Virus record (IMG/VR): IMGVR_UViG_3300034418_006598
Length of the DNA: 64,000 bases
Strand: one strand, 5' to 3'
Origin: an uncultured virus (IMG/VR IMGVR_UViG_3300034418_006598)
Lineage: Duplodnaviria > Heunggongvirae > Uroviricota > Caudoviricetes
The translations under genes were made by a program, and so were the position numbers. The number at the start of each line of letters is the position of its first letter. Within the stretch, counting starts at the first letter, position 1. Under the pieces are notes generated by a model that was given only the letters and a program-made list of their open reading frames with translations, was not told where the DNA came from and ran no database searches. Below, piece by piece: positions 1,957-59,812 of this stretch.

Positions 1957-3474
1957 ATGGCTAAAGATCCTTTGGAAGGTCAGACAGTTCCTACAGAAGA
2001 GATGGCAAAAGAGCTGTCGAAGATTTTGGGTTGTTCGGGAGCACACAAAGTGGGCGACGATGCTTGGGGTCCGTGTGAGTCACCTAAGGATCTGAAGAAG
2101 CTGATCCGGGTCGGTAACCCTGCTTTTCGTGAGTGGAAGAAGCGGCAACAGAAGAAGAAAAACTTCTACGACTTTTTAGAGTTGAAAGCGAAGGGTAAAG
2201 GGAAGAACAAGTTCCCGACTCGTGAAGCTGCAGAACAGGCCGCAAGCAAGATGGGGTGTGCCGGTGCGCATCAGACCCGGCAAGGGGTTTGGGCGCCGTG
2301 CATGACTCCTGAAGATTACAATGCGGCTCACGGCCATTTGAGTATCGGCGGTTCACCGGTTTTGAGGTTGCAAAGACCAACTCGTCGTGTTGCTACAGAT
2401 TTACGTGCGTGGGAAAAACTTCGTGAGCGTGGGCCACGAGGCATTGAGACGTTGCCGGGTGGTGGCTTGGTTTCGGCTAAATCTGTTACGGCTTCTGATT
2501 CGTTTACCCCCACGAAGGGTATGGTAGAAGAAGCGAAGCGAGCATTGGCGTGGCGTAAAGAGTTTAAACGTGGGGGTACTGCTGTAGGTATCGCTCGTGC
2601 TAGGGACATTGCGAATGGCAAGAATCTTCCGTACAAGACTGTAAAGAGGATGAAGGCGTTTTTCGATAGACATCAGTCTGATGCAAACGCTGACGGGTTT
2701 AGACCGGGTGAAAAAGGTTTCCCTTCTAATGGTAGAATTGCTCATGCTTTGTGGGGTGGCGATACCGGATATACATGGGCCAAGAATATTGTTGCCCGTG
2801 TCGAAGGTACCGAAAAGTCGTTTAACTCAATTGAAGAAAAACGTTACTACACGCGTGCTCGCCGGATGGAGTATGCGAAGCGTGGTTGGGCGTTACCTGA
2901 CGGTTCGTTCCCGATTCGGGATGTCGGGGATTTGCGTAACGCTATCCAGGCTTATGGTTTGGGCAAGAATCGTGAGGCTACCAAAAAGCATATCATGAAG
3001 CGTGCCAGGGCTTTAGGACGCACCGAGTTGATTCCTGAGAATTGGAAGACTCGTCAAAAAGCAGCTAGACGTTATGGGCCAAACGATCCTAAGACGCCAG
3101 CGAAGCCTTCGGAACGTATCCGGGGGTCTAGACGAAACAAGCCGGGAACGGCGGCTAGTACCCGTGGAGGGATTAAGCTTTCGGCTGCGGTTGAGACTTC
3201 CTTGAAAAACAAGGTCAAAGAGCATAATGAGAAGATGGAGAAGCGTAACAAGCCTGAACGCAAGGTGACGTTAGGTATGCTTAAGGCTGTTTGGCGTAGA
3301 GGTGCCGGTGCTTTCTCGGCTACTCACCGCCCAAAGATGGGTCGTCAGCAGTGGGCTATGGGTCGTGTCAACGCATTCTTGAAACTCGTGTCTAGCGGTA
3401 AACCGTCGAATCCTAAGTATACAACCGATAATGACCTTCTCCCTAAGAAGCATCCACGTAGAACTAAATCGTAA
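1957..3474 (+). CDS. multi-module basic head-associated protein (capsid maturation region accessory)
   Basis: Directly upstream of the MCP. Two GC(S/A)GAH...W.PC repeats plus modules GGTAVGIARARDIA..RMKAFFDRH..LWGGD, ALPDGSFPIRD..DLRNAI and LKAVWRRGAGAF..WAMGRVNAF, of the type seen fused to phage prohead protease/portal proteins. Confidence 0.6.
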   Translation: MAKDPLEGQTVPTEEMAKELSKILGCSGAHKVGDDAWGPCESPKDLKKLIRVGNPAFREWKKRQQKKKNFYDFLELKAKGKGKNKFPTREAAEQAASKMGCAGAHQTRQGVWAPCMTPEDYNAAHGHLSIGGSPVLRLQRPTRRVATDLRAWEKLRERGPRGIETLPGGGLVSAKSVTASDSFTPTKGMVEEAKRALAWRKEFKRGGTAVGIARARDIANGKNLPYKTVKRMKAFFDRHQSDANADGFRPGEKGFPSNGRIAHALWGGDTGYTWAKNIVARVEGTEKSFNSIEEKRYYTRARRMEYAKRGWALPDGSFPIRDVGDLRNAIQAYGLGKNREATKKHIMKRARALGRTELIPENWKTRQKAARRYGPNDPKTPAKPSERIRGSRRNKPGTAASTRGGIKLSAAVETSLKNKVKEHNEKMEKRNKPERKVTLGMLKAVWRRGAGAFSATHRPKMGRQQWAMGRVNAFLKLVSSGKPSNPKYTTDNDLLPKKHPRRTKS

Positions 3475-38652: not shown

Positions 38653-38726
38653 GCCCCCGTATTCCAATTGGCAGAGAAAGGGCGCTTAAAACGCCTACAG
38701 TGTGGGTTCGAGTCCCACCGGGGGTA
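38653..38726 (+). tRNA. tRNA-Leu(UAA), short variable loop, CCA not encoded
   Basis: Acceptor GCCCCCG/CGGGGGT; anticodon arm GGGCG-CTTAAAA-CGCCT; T arm GTGGG-TTCGAGT-CCCAC. Confidence 0.9.
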
Positions 38727-38728
38727 CT

Positions 38729-52237: not shown

Positions 52238-52977
52238 ATATAGAGTTTCCGCTAGGGCGGTGGTCAGGCATCGGAATTTACGACGATGTTGTAGACAAGG
52301 CCGCATGTCAGAACATTATTGATCTAGTCGAACGTCATTGGAACCGACTAGAAGAAATGCAAGTTCTGAACCCCGGTAAAATGGTCGGTGGGGTGGATCA
52401 ATCTATCAAAAACTCAACTGACATGAACATCTCTGCCGCAATGGGAGACGAACTGTACTCCATGGGAGGAGGCTGGTCTGAACAAGACATTCACGCCGGA
52501 CTGGTAAAGTGCGTTAACCATTACGTCAACCAGTACCCAGGGCTAAGCCAGCAGTGCTTCCCATTACAAGACATGGGTTACCAGTTTCAAAAATACGATG
52601 TTGGCCACGGCAAGTACGACGAACATATCGACGGTGGGCCGTTCGGCAGTTCATTTGACAGAATGCTGGCTGTCATTGTTTACCTTAACGACGTTGACGA
52701 AGGTGGAGAAACTACCTTCACCCGTCAGGAGCTTTCCGTTAAGCCCGTAGCAGGGAGGGTGCTTATTTTTCCGTGTCACTGGCTGTACCCCCACCGTGGT
52801 GAGATTTCGTTTGATAAAGACAAGTACATAGTCACCACGTTTATCATGCAGGAAGACATGAATCATTTGGTTCATCGTCCTGATGAGATGCAAGAGCATT
52901 TCCACGATCACTTCAATGAAGAGGACCTTCCTAACTACCACGGCCCCGGCCACCATCACGATCACGAGCATGAGTGA
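52234..52977 (+). CDS. 2OG-Fe(II) oxygenase (prolyl 4-hydroxylase-like) with His-rich tail
   Basis: YDEHID, RMLAVIVYLNDVDEGGET.F, VKP.AGRVLIFP, YPHRG, KYIVT. Confidence 0.88.
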   Translation: MNIEFPLGRWSGIGIYDDVVDKAACQNIIDLVERHWNRLEEMQVLNPGKMVGGVDQSIKNSTDMNISAAMGDELYSMGGGWSEQDIHAGLVKCVNHYVNQYPGLSQQCFPLQDMGYQFQKYDVGHGKYDEHIDGGPFGSSFDRMLAVIVYLNDVDEGGETTFTRQELSVKPVAGRVLIFPCHWLYPHRGEISFDKDKYIVTTFIMQEDMNHLVHRPDEMQEHFHDHFNEEDLPNYHGPGHHHDHEHE

Positions 52978-53521
52978 AAAAGATTTTAAGTTTCTACAAT
53001 GGGCAGATCAGGGAGCCAAGCTTTTCTCTACCTGTTCTAAAAGCCAGTACATGGCTATCATTGTTGACTCTGAAGGTTTTGTTCTTGGCGTAGGCTACAA
53101 CGGTTCTCCTCGGGGCGCTGCTCATTGCAATCAAGGCGCATGTCCTCGTGCTCTTGCAGGAAGCGATCATAAGTCATCTGACTACAGTGACTGCATCGCT
53201 GTTCACGCTGAAGCTAATGCGTTGCTCCACAGCGACTTTAACGCCCGTGCCCGCATGGGCGGTGTTGCGATGTATGTGAATGGAGAGCCTTGCCTTGAGT
53301 GCGCTAAGCTTATTGCGAACAGCGGCGTCAGGATTGTGTATGGTATTCGGGAAAACCGTCCGGCGCTTTCTAAGGTCGAGGAAGTGTTTGTTGCGTCTAG
53401 CATTGATTTGATTCTGTATGATAGGGATGAAGTTATGCCGGTACATGATACAACTAAGAAGTATTTTGATTCGCATTCATTAAGCCGTTGGAAAGAGTGG
53501 CCCAAAGTAGGTAAGTCTTGA
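52970..53521 (+). CDS. dCMP deaminase family protein
   Basis: STCSK, GYNGSPRG, VHAEANA, PCLECAKLI. Confidence 0.88.
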   Translation: MSEKDFKFLQWADQGAKLFSTCSKSQYMAIIVDSEGFVLGVGYNGSPRGAAHCNQGACPRALAGSDHKSSDYSDCIAVHAEANALLHSDFNARARMGGVAMYVNGEPCLECAKLIANSGVRIVYGIRENRPALSKVEEVFVASSIDLILYDRDEVMPVHDTTKKYFDSHSLSRWKEWPKVGKS

Positions 53522-54412: not shown

Positions 54413-54664
54413 ATGGACGATAACACTGTAGTTAAACTTTTAAATGAGATTCGTTATGCTCAGGTAGTGTCTGGAGTTCACGCTGATGCAATATGTGAAG
54501 CAATCAAGATCATTTCTGATGCTAACGCTATCTGCATTACAGACGGTTCAGGTAAAGAAATTGCTGTAATTGACGGCGATCTTGCTGATGCAATTATTAA
54601 GCAAAGTGTTACCCGTTTCATTACGGATGCTTTAGAGAATCTTATTGAGCATTACAGTGAGTAA
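54413..54664 (+). CDS. hypothetical protein
   Basis: AAGGAG RBS. Confidence 0.65.
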   Translation: MDDNTVVKLLNEIRYAQVVSGVHADAICEAIKIISDANAICITDGSGKEIAVIDGDLADAIIKQSVTRFITDALENLIEHYSE

Positions 54665-55031
54665 TACGGCGAGGACAATTGCTGTCGCCACTGCCGAAAA
54701 GTCTGATCATGATAAGTGGCGTCTAGGCTCTGTTGTATGGAGAGGCGGTTCTGTGCTTTCCACGGGTTTTAATCGTGTGAAGAACGATCCTTCCGTTGTG
54801 GAGGACTCTAAGCATTTCCATTGTTCTATTCATGCTGAAGCGGATGCTTTGCGGAATGCTGGTGATACTCGGGGTGCTAGGTTGTTTGTTGCTCGTGTTA
54901 CTCGGAGCGGCAATTTGGCGCTTGCTAAGCCTTGTTCTCGTTGCATGGAAGCGATTAGGGAGCATGGAATCAAGAGGGTTTACTACACTGATGAGAATGG
55001 TGAGTGGACGTTCTTTAGAGTCTGGCCTTGA
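54657..55031 (+). CDS. second Zn-dependent cytidine/deoxycytidylate deaminase-fold protein
   Basis: LSTGFN, SIHAEADAL, AKPCSRC, GIKRVYYT. Confidence 0.85.
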   Translation: MSNTARTIAVATAEKSDHDKWRLGSVVWRGGSVLSTGFNRVKNDPSVVEDSKHFHCSIHAEADALRNAGDTRGARLFVARVTRSGNLALAKPCSRCMEAIREHGIKRVYYTDENGEWTFFRVWP

Positions 55032-55056
55032 CACACTGCGCCGAGGCTGGTATAAT
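55028..55056 (+). promoter_or_regulatory. consensus sigma70-type promoter driving the ORF-ribozyme-ncRNA unit
   Basis: TTGACA-17nt-TATAAT with TG extension. Confidence 0.85.
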
Positions 55057-55086
55057 ACCCACAGTCAACGATAAACAAAGGAGATT

Positions 55087-55374
55087 ATGTTGATTACGAA
55101 GAAGGCAATTATTCAGGCGGCTACTGAGGTTGCGGAGCGTGCCCCGACGGCCCGTAACCGTTCCTCGAAGATGGTGACGTATCGTCATCCTCGTGGCCTT
55201 ATCGGTAATGCGCTGCACGCTGCCGGTATGTCGCCCCGTGAGATTCGTTCTCTGCAGGGCAACCGTAAGTACGATCGTTTCCTGAACCCGGCAGCTACCG
55301 CTTGGGTCCGTGAGGCGAACAGCCGTGCCAACAAGGGCATGGCGTGGGGCGAGGTTGTCGGTACCACCCGATGA
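55087..55374 (+). CDS. basic hypothetical protein upstream of pistol ribozyme
   Basis: AAGGAG RBS; 95 aa, R/K/A-rich. Confidence 0.75.
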   Translation: MLITKKAIIQAATEVAERAPTARNRSSKMVTYRHPRGLIGNALHAAGMSPREIRSLQGNRKYDRFLNPAATAWVREANSRANKGMAWGEVVGTTR

Positions 55375-55380
55375 TCGTAC

Positions 55381-55446
55381 CGTCGTCTGAGCGACGTTAA
55401 ATAGGCTTTAGGCTCAGAGCGTTCCCCACTTCGGTGGGGAGGTGGC
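55381..55446 (+). ncRNA. pistol self-cleaving ribozyme
   Basis: P1 CGTCG/CGACG; loop TCTGAG pseudoknots with CTCAGA; conserved TTAAATAG, TTAGG and GCG; P3 TTCCCCAC-TTCG-GTGGGGAG; G|T cleavage dinucleotide 55442/55443; P2 GCT/GGC. Confidence 0.9.
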
Positions 55447-55615
55447 GTTGAGGCGGGTGGATGGCAGTTCACACCGTAAGACTTTGCCAGTCTTTTCTCT
55501 GGAGGCTGTACGGCTTAGCATTATGACCACTACATGCGTACAAGTGTAGTGGACGTGGAGCAGCTAGTCCCACGGCAAGTGTGAAGGGGTCGCCCCCCAA
55601 CTAGCACCTATCTCC
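55444..55615 (+). ncRNA. multi-stem structured RNA with two potential pseudoknots, raiA-motif-like
   Basis: Closing helix 55450-59/55605-14; TTCACAC/GTGTGAA; CGTA/TACG; AAGAC/GTCTT; CCACTACA/TGTAGTGG; CGTGG/CCACG; GGGG/CCCC; pseudoknots TGGCAG-TTGCCA and GCTAGT-ACTAGC. Confidence 0.6.
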
Positions 55616-55630
55616 GTTACACTTCGTAAC

Positions 55631-55723
55631 ATGTCTGCGTCGATGGCTGACGGCTTGCTGAGTATCAATGTAGAGAAGGTTATTCCGGAAGAGCAGCAGC
55701 CGATTGAGATCGAGATCTCGTAA
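55631..55723 (+). pseudogene. Hsp20 (small heat-shock protein) C-terminal remnant
   Basis: MSASMADGLLSINVEKVIPEEQQPIEIEIS matches the A-x-x-x-DGLL-x-I...PE...I-x-I C-terminus of IbpA/Hsp20. Confidence 0.65.
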
Positions 55724-55740
55724 GTAGAATCAGTATATAC

Positions 55741-55887
55741 ATGAAGAAGTTTAAGAAGTGGCTACGTAAGCTACGTTACGGCGAAGACCCGTTTGAGGGA
55801 TATACATTCTCGCAACCGTTCATCGGTTTGATTACTCAGCCTCCCGGCGAGTACGTCAAGCCACTACCAAAGGATAGAAATGACTGA
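55741..55887 (+). CDS. small hypothetical protein
   Basis: MKKFKKWLRKLRYGEDPF..., 48 aa. Confidence 0.45.
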   Translation: MKKFKKWLRKLRYGEDPFEGYTFSQPFIGLITQPPGEYVKPLPKDRND

Positions 55888-56047
55888 TTCAACTATGGAT
55901 GTCACCGACTTTATCTCTCAAATTGAGGATATGTTGAAGCAGGTTGCGGGCCACACTGTGGTTTCAGCCGCCGATATGCAGAACGGGCTGCTCGATTTGA
56001 TGCAGTCGGCCCGTTCGCTGACCCTATCGTCGGATGAGGAACTGTAA
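55880..56047 (+). CDS. small hypothetical protein
   Basis: AAGGA RBS; MTDSTMDVTDFISQIEDML..., 55 aa. Confidence 0.55.
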   Translation: MTDSTMDVTDFISQIEDMLKQVAGHTVVSAADMQNGLLDLMQSARSLTLSSDEEL

Positions 56048-56050
56048 TTT

Positions 56051-56347
56051 ATGAGGCAATTCTTACGTTACTTCTTACGATGGCAGCTATCCACACCTGT
56101 GCTGCTGTTGTTTATTGCTGTTTACCCTGGCAACATACTGATGAAGGTAGCGTTAGCTAACCTTTTGGTGTCGTTATTGGACTATTTTTCCCGTAAAAGT
56201 ATGAGGCAGCAGAGCAATTCAGGGTTCATGAAAGCCCGCCGAGGCGACGATTTCATCCCCTATACGCTCAGAACTTCCATGCGGAACAAGGCTAAGCGGT
56301 TTAAATTTACCCGTAAATTCCCTATCGAAAGACGAAAAAAGACATGA
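56051..56347 (+). CDS. small membrane protein
   Basis: RYFLRWQLSTPVLLLF hydrophobic N-terminus. Confidence 0.45.
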   Translation: MRQFLRYFLRWQLSTPVLLLFIAVYPGNILMKVALANLLVSLLDYFSRKSMRQQSNSGFMKARRGDDFIPYTLRTSMRNKAKRFKFTRKFPIERRKKT

Positions 56348-58468: not shown

Positions 58469-58507
58469 TTGCTGTGGTTGTATAGCTGGGGGATATACAG
58501 TATTGTT

Positions 58508-59173
58508 ATGGTTGATTCTAATAGGTTGTCGAGAGAGTTTTTGGCTGAGCGGGATGCCCGGATTTTTGGTTTGAAGAAGTCGGGTTTGTCGAATCAGGAG
58601 ATTGCTCGTCGTTTTGATATGACGGCGGCTTCTGTTGCTGCTGCTACTCGGCGGCAGTTGGGTCGGCTTAATAGTGAGGCTTTTCTTTCGTATCCTGAGG
58701 TGCTTAGGTTGGAGCTGGAGAGGTTAGATGAGCTTCAGAAGGGCCTGTGGCCGTTGACTCAGTTCCGTCGGGAAGTGTTAGATGATGGTTCTGAGGTGAT
58801 GTTGGAGCCGGATCAGAACGCTGTTCGTACGGTGTTGGGTATTATGGATCGTCGTGCGAAGCTTTTGGGTATGAATGTGGAGCGTGCTGTGGTTGAGTTG
58901 CAGATGGATGGGGGTGGTGGGGATACCATTGATGTTCGGAGTAGTTTGGCTGGTGCTGCTGGTGGTGAGGTGTTGGAGACGGGGGAGGCTGCGAAGGCGG
59001 AGTCGTTGCAGTTGTTGGAGTTGATGGCTTCGTCTGGGGTTTTGGATGAGGGTGTTGTTGGGGATATTTTGTCTAGTGTTGAGGAGCGTGGTGGTTTGGA
59101 GGAGGATAGGGTTGAGTTGGATGATTTGGATGTTGTTGATGCTGAGATTGTTGATGAAAGTGAGGATTTGTGA
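58508..59173 (+). CDS. HTH protein resembling actinophage terminase small subunit
   Basis: ERDARIF.LKKSGLSNQEIARRF HTH; LELERLDELQ..LWP; AVRTVL.IMDRRAKLLG; TACAGT 6 nt before ATG. Confidence 0.6.
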   Translation: MVDSNRLSREFLAERDARIFGLKKSGLSNQEIARRFDMTAASVAAATRRQLGRLNSEAFLSYPEVLRLELERLDELQKGLWPLTQFRREVLDDGSEVMLEPDQNAVRTVLGIMDRRAKLLGMNVERAVVELQMDGGGGDTIDVRSSLAGAAGGEVLETGEAAKAESLQLLELMASSGVLDEGVVGDILSSVEERGGLEEDRVELDDLDVVDAEIVDESEDL

Positions 59174-59735: not shown

Positions 59736-59812
59736 TGGTGGGGCAGGTGAGGCTTGAACTCACTTTCTCCGCCGTATAAGGACGGTGCATTTACCCGTTA
59801 TGCTTCTGCCCC
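59736..59812 (-). tRNA. tRNA-Ile(UAU), CCA encoded
   Basis: Minus strand reads GGGGCAG-AA-GCAT...ATGC-A-CCGTC-CTTATAC-GGCGG-AGAAA-GTGAG-TTCAAGC-CTCAC-CTGCCCC-A-CCA. Confidence 0.85.

Follow-up and report, generated by a model that had tools for sequence, protein, structure and literature searches.

The chemistry of pistol ribozymes has been studied thoroughly since 2015, and their self-cleavage yields products with 2′,3′-cyclic phosphate and 5′-hydroxyl (5′-OH) ends. The available part of a 2019 review describes the role of the pistol-type ribozymes of bacteria and phages as undefined, with the processing of polycistronic transcripts merely suggested (PMC6765202). Theta ribozymes, which resemble the hepatitis delta virus (HDV) ribozyme and lie beside phage transfer RNA (tRNA) genes, are proposed in the accessible text of their report to make an RNA end without a host nuclease (PMC10879173). 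GOLLD and ROOL, as described in the available parts of two sources, are phage-borne, pseudoknot-rich RNAs that lie beside tRNA genes and are protein-free as far as known (PMC5737381; bioRxiv 10.1101/2024.12.08.627333). Here we analysed a 64,000-nucleotide (nt) stretch of DNA, hereafter the window, from an uncultured virus (IMG/VR record IMGVR_UViG_3300034418_006598), in which a pistol ribozyme follows a small open reading frame (ORF) of 95 codons, ORF95, and immediately precedes a conserved 163-nt RNA whose first base is the first base behind the predicted cleavage site. We hold with moderate confidence that the role of the pistol at this locus is to generate the 5′ end of a phage non-coding RNA (ncRNA) that stands alone, and the 163-nt RNA, judged by comparison of related sequences, is a new structured RNA family.

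Membership of the ribozyme in the pistol class is clear. An earlier note on this DNA had placed a complete pistol 7 nt behind the ORF95 stop codon, and the ribozyme indeed starts at that distance and aligns with the whole of the Rfam model (E = 2e-11 in a search over the 64-kb window; Table 1). The covariance-model alignment sets the consensus GGU on 55441-55443 and, with the cut falling, as we take it to, between the G and the U of this triplet, the predicted site is G55442/U55443, the same position as in the note. The pseudoknot formed by the loop of the 5′ hairpin, which we take to be the defining feature of the class, pairs with an internal strand as UGAGC/GCUCA in the window and covaries in relatives through double changes, with AUGGC/GCCAU in locus L011 and AGGGC/GCCCU in L120-122. 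HDV-like, hammerhead, twister, hatchet and hairpin ribozymes had no Rfam match between 55000 and 56100.

Related loci, cited here by their L numbers, were fetched through ORF95 (16 IMG/VR and 28 metagenome loci) and through a pattern of the pistol core (78 IMG/VR stretches, 72 of them distinct); record G001 is the same virus as the window (100% identity). Copies of the RNA were found in the window type, L112, L013, L016, L011, L130, L133 and L086, with the L130 copy truncated by the contig end and the L112 copy carrying a 10-nt insertion in the linker of the 3′ domain, and sequence identity among the relatives stops sharply at 55605. A covariance model (R1) made from four close variants scored 31 bits in L133, 27 in L130, 15 in L086 and 14 in L011, the last without filters. 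In a seven-sequence alignment fitted to the model structure, 94.9% of the cells were paired, as against 36-50% when the partners were slid by 1-3 columns, and compensatory two-sided changes occurred in 22 of 41 pairs, as against 9.5 ± 2.1 in shuffles; none of 500 shuffles reached the observed value for either pairing or two-sided changes. The features by which we recognised the family, namely a helix B that encloses hairpin C, an AAGG..CCAAC motif and a position 3′ of a pistol, are present in the window, L112, L013, L016, L011, L133 and L086. The RNA of about 170 nt with multiple stems that had been proposed behind the ribozyme is thus real and has comparative support, with limits that differ from those first drawn (55443-55605).

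The RNA matches no described family. A search of 55000-56100 against all families of Rfam 15, with E up to 10, returned only the pistol and a chance match to TYMV_upPK on the other strand (16 bits), and among these families was raiA, which gave no match on either strand of these 1.1 kb; the RNA is therefore not raiA-like, and the label given to it by the earlier note does not stand. In L133, L086 and L134, Rfam likewise gave no match to raiA at E up to 0.1. ARAGORN and Rfam, searched for tRNA and transfer-messenger RNA, found only the tRNAs at 38653-38727 and 59736-59812, and the 163-nt RNA is not one of them. Cultured phages in GenBank held the RNA in none of their genomes, the match being limited to the 40-50-nt pistol core in 10 records (Gordonia, Microbacterium and Curtobacterium phages), and representative bacterial and archaeal genomes searched with a pistol-plus-GCGTTG pattern gave 5 stretches, all of them chance matches. 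L134 (identical to L065) and L120-122 were considered as members and left out because R1, at the site where the RNA would be expected, scored only 5.9 and 5.8 bits. These loci carry a shorter folded stretch behind the pistol (about 1848-1960 in L120-L122, 542-697 in L134); its hairpin loops are complementary (UUGUGG/CCACAA in L120), and a terminator follows.

Counted from U55443 as base 1, the RNA begins with P0, a proposed closing helix of two pairs (bases 3-4/76-77, G55445/C55446 with G55518/C55519), which are invariant in the fitted alignment. The three-way junction that follows is built from P1′ (55450-52/55497-99, bases 8-10/55-57), HP1 (55453-55477, bases 11-35, loop UGGCAG) and HP2 (55478-55494, bases 36-52, loop UUUGCCA). 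P1′ occurs as two distinct strand pairs, GAG/CUC here and GGU/ACC in L011, L130 and L133, and HP1 as five, and the loops of HP1 and HP2 pair with each other (55462-66 with 55485-89) as UGGCA/UGCCA in the window and CGGCAA/UUGCCG in the same three loci. A second loop-loop complement, six bases long, joins P4 to HP3 (55507-12 with 55537-42); it reads UGUACG/CGUACA in the window, L013 and L130 and ACCGACC/GGUCGGU in L133, and is missing, as defined, in L011 and L086. The loop-loop complements were matched by 13-94 of 5000 shuffles.

The 3′ domain comprises helix A (55554-58/55570-74, bases 112-116/128-132; five distinct strand pairs in six variants), helix B (55563-68/55600-05, bases 121-126/158-163; five in seven) and hairpin C (55586-89/55595-98, within bases 144-156; four in seven), which helix B encloses. 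Because the 5′ strand of helix B lies inside the loop of helix A, the arrangement is an H-type pseudoknot. Both loop-loop pairings and this pseudoknot come from a hand alignment, and in the corresponding table of nine hand-picked helices each helix is represented by 2-6 distinct strand pairs. Bases 5-10 could alternatively pair over a long range with 72-77, as seen by eye in several lineages, and this would compete with P1′ and P4. The closing helix of the earlier note (55450-59/55605-14) is not conserved: a G-to-U change at 55456 in L112 breaks one of its pairs, and the sequence after the RNA is unrelated in L013/L016, L011 and L133. Two other readings of the fold were set aside. Read as an HDV ribozyme, the fold, judged by eye, leaves no room for P3 between the 5′ strand of helix B and the 3′ strand of helix A, and a tRNA-like reading of helix B and hairpin C with an ACC tail fails on the tail, which varies among the copies (ACCU in the window, UACCA in L013, CUAUU in L133, a tRNA in L011).

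The linkage of the RNA to the pistol is constant. Every copy found sits downstream of a pistol, and in five of the six lineages the first bases of the RNA, UGGCG, are the 3′ strand of the ribozyme itself, with no spacer. A scan on the 3′ domain of the RNA alone returned 18 stretches, five of them real copies and all five with a pistol; in a looser scan with the same domain 80 loci were fetched, of which three were real, again each with a pistol (3/3), and the other 77 were without a model match. The pair of pistol and RNA stands behind four unrelated upstream genes. The upstream frames of L130, L133, L134 and L086 are unrelated to ORF95.

What follows ORF95 was recorded in the 25 metagenome loci that include its end: a pistol and the RNA in 8, a pistol and then at once a dCMP deaminase gene in 4, a pistol and a different short folded stretch in 3, a pistol and other sequence in 2, and in the remaining 8 no pistol, with a terminator or a tRNA in its place. 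The suggestion that ORF95 is the partner protein of the RNA does not agree with these loci, in which ORF95 and the pistol occur without the RNA (9/25) and ORF95 occurs without the pistol (8/25), nor with the RNA lying behind non-homologous ORFs in L130, L133 and L086. The three-part linkage foreseen in relatives accordingly reduces to two parts, the pistol with the RNA being constant and ORF95 not belonging to the unit. The same pistol stands before the dCMP deaminase gene in close relatives of the window phage (L010, at 3295-3365, and L012, L101, L110, L111 and L114); in loci of the L010 type the predicted G|U cut falls 4 nt before the deaminase AUG, from which a nearly leaderless message with a 5′-OH would result.

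The window is part of the genome of a large, uncultured, aquatic tailed phage, with genes for tail sheath, tube, major head protein, ribonucleotide reductase, DNA polymerase, a sigma factor and a WhiB-like regulator and with two tRNAs, and contigs of 100-122 kb that are near-identical to this phage were found in metagenomes. Its host is likely to be an actinobacterium. The promoter that had been reported before the small ORF is a perfect match to the consensus; four promoter-like sites occur in the region, against 1.9 ± 1.3 in shuffles, and it is the sole perfect one, overlapping the last codons of a dCMP-deaminase-like ORF (54645-55031). ORF95 is present as described, a basic phage protein that matches phrog_572, a family of unknown function (E = 6.7e-7), with no Pfam family above cut-off and only viral hypothetical proteins as Atlas neighbours, all with scores below 0.9. 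Homologs with 76-100% identity occur in 16 loci from IMG/VR and 25 of the 28 from metagenomes. Two dCMP-deaminase-like genes lie 1.1 kb apart in the window (52883-53521 and 54645-55031; phrog_174, E = 1.9e-32 and 3.4e-24), and a homolog of the first is found directly behind the pistol in L010, which indicates that the region has been rearranged. The ORF at 58469-59170, 3 kb downstream of the ribozyme, weakly resembles phrog_645 (E = 5.7e-14), a phage family that carries the annotation 'Rnase E'.

Behind the RNA, the sequence differs from lineage to lineage. In the window, the small hairpin reported earlier is present; there is no T run behind it and no terminator was called there, so that the 3′ end of the RNA is undefined in the window phage. 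The Hsp20 fragment that follows proved to be the remnant of a gene for 140 amino acids that is intact in L010 (5162-5584), where the same 29 terminal residues are followed by the same small ORFs. In Pfam HSP20 (PF00011, E = 3.9e-4) the remnant aligns with positions 73-102 of 102 only, the whole alpha-crystallin domain not being present, and covers positions 120-147 of 148 of phrog_432, and a contig from an RNA run joins ...FTLADNVEVV to 55634. Compared with L010, the window has lost the dCMP deaminase gene, the tRNA genes and the first 110 Hsp20 codons, and the RNA lies in their place. In L013/L016 the RNA is followed by a promoter-like TGnTATAAT box and a gene for a secreted protein, and in L011 the base right after the RNA is already the first of a tRNA gene, an arrangement in which RNase P would make the 3′ end of the RNA and both ends would arise by processing.

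Table 1. Positions of the features described (window coordinates unless a locus is named)
Feature	Position	Strand	Basis
Sigma-70-type promoter, TTGACA-17-TATAAT with extended -10 TG	55028-55056	+	12/12 consensus positions
ORF95, basic phage protein, 95 amino acids, isoelectric point 11.56	55087-55374	+	AAGGAG 5 nt before ATG
Pistol ribozyme	55381-55447	+	Rfam RF02679, 73.1 bits (gathering score 34.5), model positions 1-68/68
Conserved structured RNA, 163 nt, 5′ end at the predicted pistol cut	55443-55605	+	Eight variants, six lineages
5′ three-way junction	55450-55499	+	P1′, HP1 and HP2 with loop-loop pairing
Hairpin P4 (AGGC/GCUU, loop UGUACG)	55503-55516 (bases 61-74)	+	5 distinct strand pairs, 8 variants
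Hairpin HP3 (CCACUACA/UGUAGUGG, loop with CGUACA)	55527-55552 (bases 85-110)	+	6 distinct strand pairs
3′ pseudoknot domain (helices A and B, hairpin C)	55554-55605	+	Strand changes among variants
3′ flank with hairpin GTTAC-ACTTC-GTAAC (55616-55630)	55606-55630	+	Common only to L112, up to CGTAA
Hsp20 gene remnant, 30-amino-acid ORF, last 29 codons behind a chance ATG	55631-55723	+	Pfam HSP20
GOLLD behind pistol	L162 (G002:C1:1867-2241), L163 (G003), L164 (G004)		RF02032, 211.7, 197.9 and 192.7 bits
Weak GOLLD match behind pistol	L165 (G006)		RF02032, 71.6 bits, below cut-off

We further examined the setting of pistols across phage contigs. Of the 72 distinct IMG/VR pistols, 63 have an open frame of at least 40 codons that ends nearby on the upstream side, and its stop codon lies between -12 and +6 nt from the first base of the pistol in 36 of these 63; at random places the figure is 31 of 166. 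Another cluster of stops, at +10, is due to a TGA within the loop of the ribozyme itself. On the other side, a long ORF starts within 66 nt of the core in 29 of the 72 pistols and in none of the other 43; it starts only at 99-343 nt in 25 and is not found within about 420 nt in 18. The pistols of three cultured actinophages (46-51 bits) likewise begin where an annotated coding sequence has its stop codon, namely those of the Gordonia phage GTE7 (L018), the Microbacterium phage Count (L019) and the Curtobacterium phage Pippin15 (L020), with 140-400 nt unannotated after the pistol. The long hairpin of the Count pistol holds an insertion of about 110 nt. Nine IMG/VR pistol loci (L031, L032, L042, L054, L069, L074, L083, L090 and L093) share an insertion of about 90 nt in the same hairpin and have conserved downstream blocks (CTTACTGTCTG, GTCAGGCCGCC and AAACAAAAAACCGC). 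Rfam gives only a partial pistol in these loci, and this group may be another pistol-linked RNA family.

GOLLD (RF02032) was found about 310 nt downstream of the pistol in three of five IMG/VR records tested, above the 150-bit cut-off. The 5′ region of GOLLD is characterised, in the available part of its preprint, as variable and less conserved (bioRxiv 10.1101/2024.12.08.627333), and the gap of about 310 nt fits such a region, suggesting that the pistol probably makes the GOLLD 5′ end in records of the L162-L164 type. In the accessible portions of the literature we found no published link of the pistol to GOLLD or to any downstream RNA, a paper that names both pistol and GOLLD drawing no connection between the two, and any flanking motifs in the original description of the pistol could overlap the RNA; the available part of the GOLLD cryo-electron microscopy (cryo-EM) preprint makes no mention of cleavage (bioRxiv 10.1101/2024.12.08.627333).

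The following model is proposed for the window phage. The promoter at 55028 would start a transcript that carries ORF95, the pistol and the 163-nt RNA, and the pistol would fold during synthesis and cut between G55442 and U55443. The ORF95 message would then end in the folded ribozyme with a 2′,3′-cyclic phosphate, and the freed RNA would begin at U55443 with a 5′-OH. G55445 and C55446, which belong to the last helix of the pistol before the cut, would afterwards pair with G55518 and C55519, closing the 5′ domain of the RNA. The freed RNA would be a compact and independently selected fold, a stand-alone ncRNA that combines a kissing-loop three-way junction and an H-type pseudoknot with a further contact between loops, and it would occupy a variable slot where relatives keep tRNA genes, as GOLLD and ROOL do. 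Judged by this context, the 163-nt RNA is to be grouped with the orphan structured RNAs that phages carry in their tRNA regions. That the cut takes place in vivo, that the strand then refolds and that the RNA is independent of the downstream message are inferences. The view of the ribozyme as a processing element, first put forward in the earlier note, holds in its core, a ribozyme positioned so that it would generate the 5′ end of a conserved RNA, and is shed of the raiA label, the ORF partner and the closing helix.

Several observations weigh against this model. The family is small, with six lineages only, three of which are close relatives of the window phage, and its members are uneven: L133 is without helix A and HP3 as defined, L086 is without P1′, HP1 and both loop-loop pairings, and in L086 a gap of about 50 nt lies between the pistol and the RNA. 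The window sequence on its own folds no better than shuffles (z -1.29), so the support for the fold is comparative; here, the seven-sequence alignment is biased toward the fold to which it was fitted, and the 315 of 315 pairs in the table of hand-picked helices are true by construction. The searches that established the linkage were keyed on the pistol, ORF95 or the 3′ motif of the RNA and are narrow enough for pistol-less copies to escape, and the pistol is tied more closely to ORF95 (17/25 loci) than to the RNA (8/25). With neither a terminator nor a processing site at its 3′ end in the window phage, the RNA may stay the leader of a downstream message. Small parts of 55000-56000 are contained in 23 runs. 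In four metatranscriptome runs, contigs span ORF95 and also the ORFs further downstream but leave 55408-55611 uncovered, which speaks neither for nor against the model; contigs cannot show ends.

The pistol might instead serve the upstream message, giving the ORF95 messenger RNA (mRNA) a defined, structured 3′ end that is uncoupled from what follows, with the RNA as unrelated cargo. The frequency with which pistols start at an upstream stop codon (36/63 against 31/166), also in GTE7, Count and Pippin15, fits such a role, as does the retention of the pistol by ORF95 with four different things behind it, only one of which is the RNA. We nevertheless consider this account unlikely, since it leaves unexplained both the pistol before every copy of the RNA and the strand shared by the 5′ end of the RNA and the 3′ end of the ribozyme, which recurs in five lineages and behind four unrelated upstream genes; the two roles can, moreover, both be true. 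It is improbable that the 163-nt fold is a cis-acting leader, staying attached after the cut to protect the downstream message or to control its translation. The RNA is followed by an Hsp20 remnant in the window, by a promoter-like box in L013/L016 and by a tRNA in L011, an absence of conservation that argues against a cis-regulatory leader; the first ORF behind the RNA in the window is, in addition, the 30-codon Hsp20 remnant, without a Shine-Dalgarno sequence. The leader account draws on the window having no terminator or promoter between the RNA and the ORFs at 55631-56347, and on relatives in which the cut of this pistol would fall 4 nt upstream of a start codon, from which making mRNA 5′ ends would be one use of the pistol.

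A regulatory relation between the two RNAs can also be imagined, in which the 163-nt RNA is the sensor or switch of the pistol, as in an allosteric ribozyme, and its 5′ strand pairs either in the ribozyme or in the closing helix of the RNA. G55445 and C55446 are indeed used both by the last helix of the pistol and by the proposed P0 with 55518/55519, and the fusion lacks a spacer in five lineages. P0, however, consists of merely two invariant pairs in a fitted alignment, about 50 nt separate pistol and RNA in L086, pistols with the same core stand without such an RNA in close relatives, and no ligand or gene association suggests a signal, which together render a switch distinctly improbable. 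As for the conservation itself, common descent of recent relatives with no functional RNA would account for the almost invariant 5′ 80 nt and for three of the six lineages being 84-100% identical in ORF95, and would be in keeping with a fold energy in the window that is not unusual. Such an origin is scarcely credible for L130, L133, L011 and L086, which share little sequence (14-31 bits) and keep the helices by two-sided changes, or in view of the sharp drop of identity at 55605 and of the L112 insertion, which falls in the linker.

With the pistol as maker of the 5′ end of the 163-nt RNA as our preferred reading, the locus suggests a natural job for the pistol ribozyme class. The pistol here has a concrete candidate client, a conserved RNA that begins at the predicted cut with a clean promoter in front, and at 163 nt the client is small enough for structure probing, cryo-EM and crystallography. 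Considering this client at the cut, the pistols before GOLLD and the cut 4 nt before a start codon, the pistol class looks like a general phage tool for RNA 5′ ends. A more specific proposal, which we judge possible but short of probable, is that pistols generally make the 5′ ends of 'ornate' phage ncRNAs, the triply knotted 163-nt RNA being a new small class and GOLLD another client. If this were true, it would provide the first natural function for the pistol class and a tractable small model for orphan phage RNAs. The kissing loops of the 163-nt RNA may, on this proposal, build RNA-only assemblies, or the RNA may act on tRNA or the translation machinery, as is suspected for GOLLD and ROOL.

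Among other structured RNAs, raiA has been described in the chromosomes of Firmicutes and Actinobacteria and is not known to be fused to ribozymes, and the species 1 and 2 RNAs of phage T4 (rnaC and rnaD) are small, stable RNAs that are cotranscribed with tRNAs and processed by host enzymes, not by a ribozyme. The likeness of the 163-nt RNA to rnaC and rnaD lies in the L011 copy that abuts a tRNA. To the raiA motif, as portrayed in the available part of its description, the likeness is one of multiple stems, similar size and pseudoknots (PMC5737381).

The resemblance to GOLLD and ROOL is broader, for, as far as the available parts of their descriptions go, these too are phage-borne, pseudoknot-rich and found in a tRNA neighbourhood, and GOLLD also lies behind a pistol in three records. 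The RNAs differ in size, 163 nt here compared with about 600-800 nt for GOLLD and ROOL, and the GOLLD model, which scores 193-212 bits behind other pistols, has no match in the window. The first domain of GOLLD has a hairpin with a GNRA-type loop in a four-way junction, whereas the 163-nt RNA has kissing loops. Homology of the 5′ domain of the RNA to this first domain was considered and rejected: R1 has no match at the right place in the GOLLD loci, and an nhmmer profile of the 5′ domain misses those loci, but it also misses the true member L011. MAFFT aligns GGC(G)TTGG, GTAC.GCAAT and CCAAGCA between the 5′ domain and the first domain of pistol-linked GOLLD, a weak lead.

With theta ribozymes the locus shares the fusion in cis of a small self-cleaving ribozyme to a phage non-coding RNA. 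Theta ribozymes, in the accessible text describing them, are HDV-like and lie on the 3′ side of tRNAs, where their proposed role is removal of the trailer, whereas the pistol here precedes an RNA other than a tRNA, whose 5′ end it would generate. The ribozyme itself does not differ from other members of the pistol class, and it is the setting that is new: to a known ribozyme the locus adds a new RNA family and, in the pairing of the pistol with this RNA, what would be a variant of ribozyme-made RNA ends in phages.

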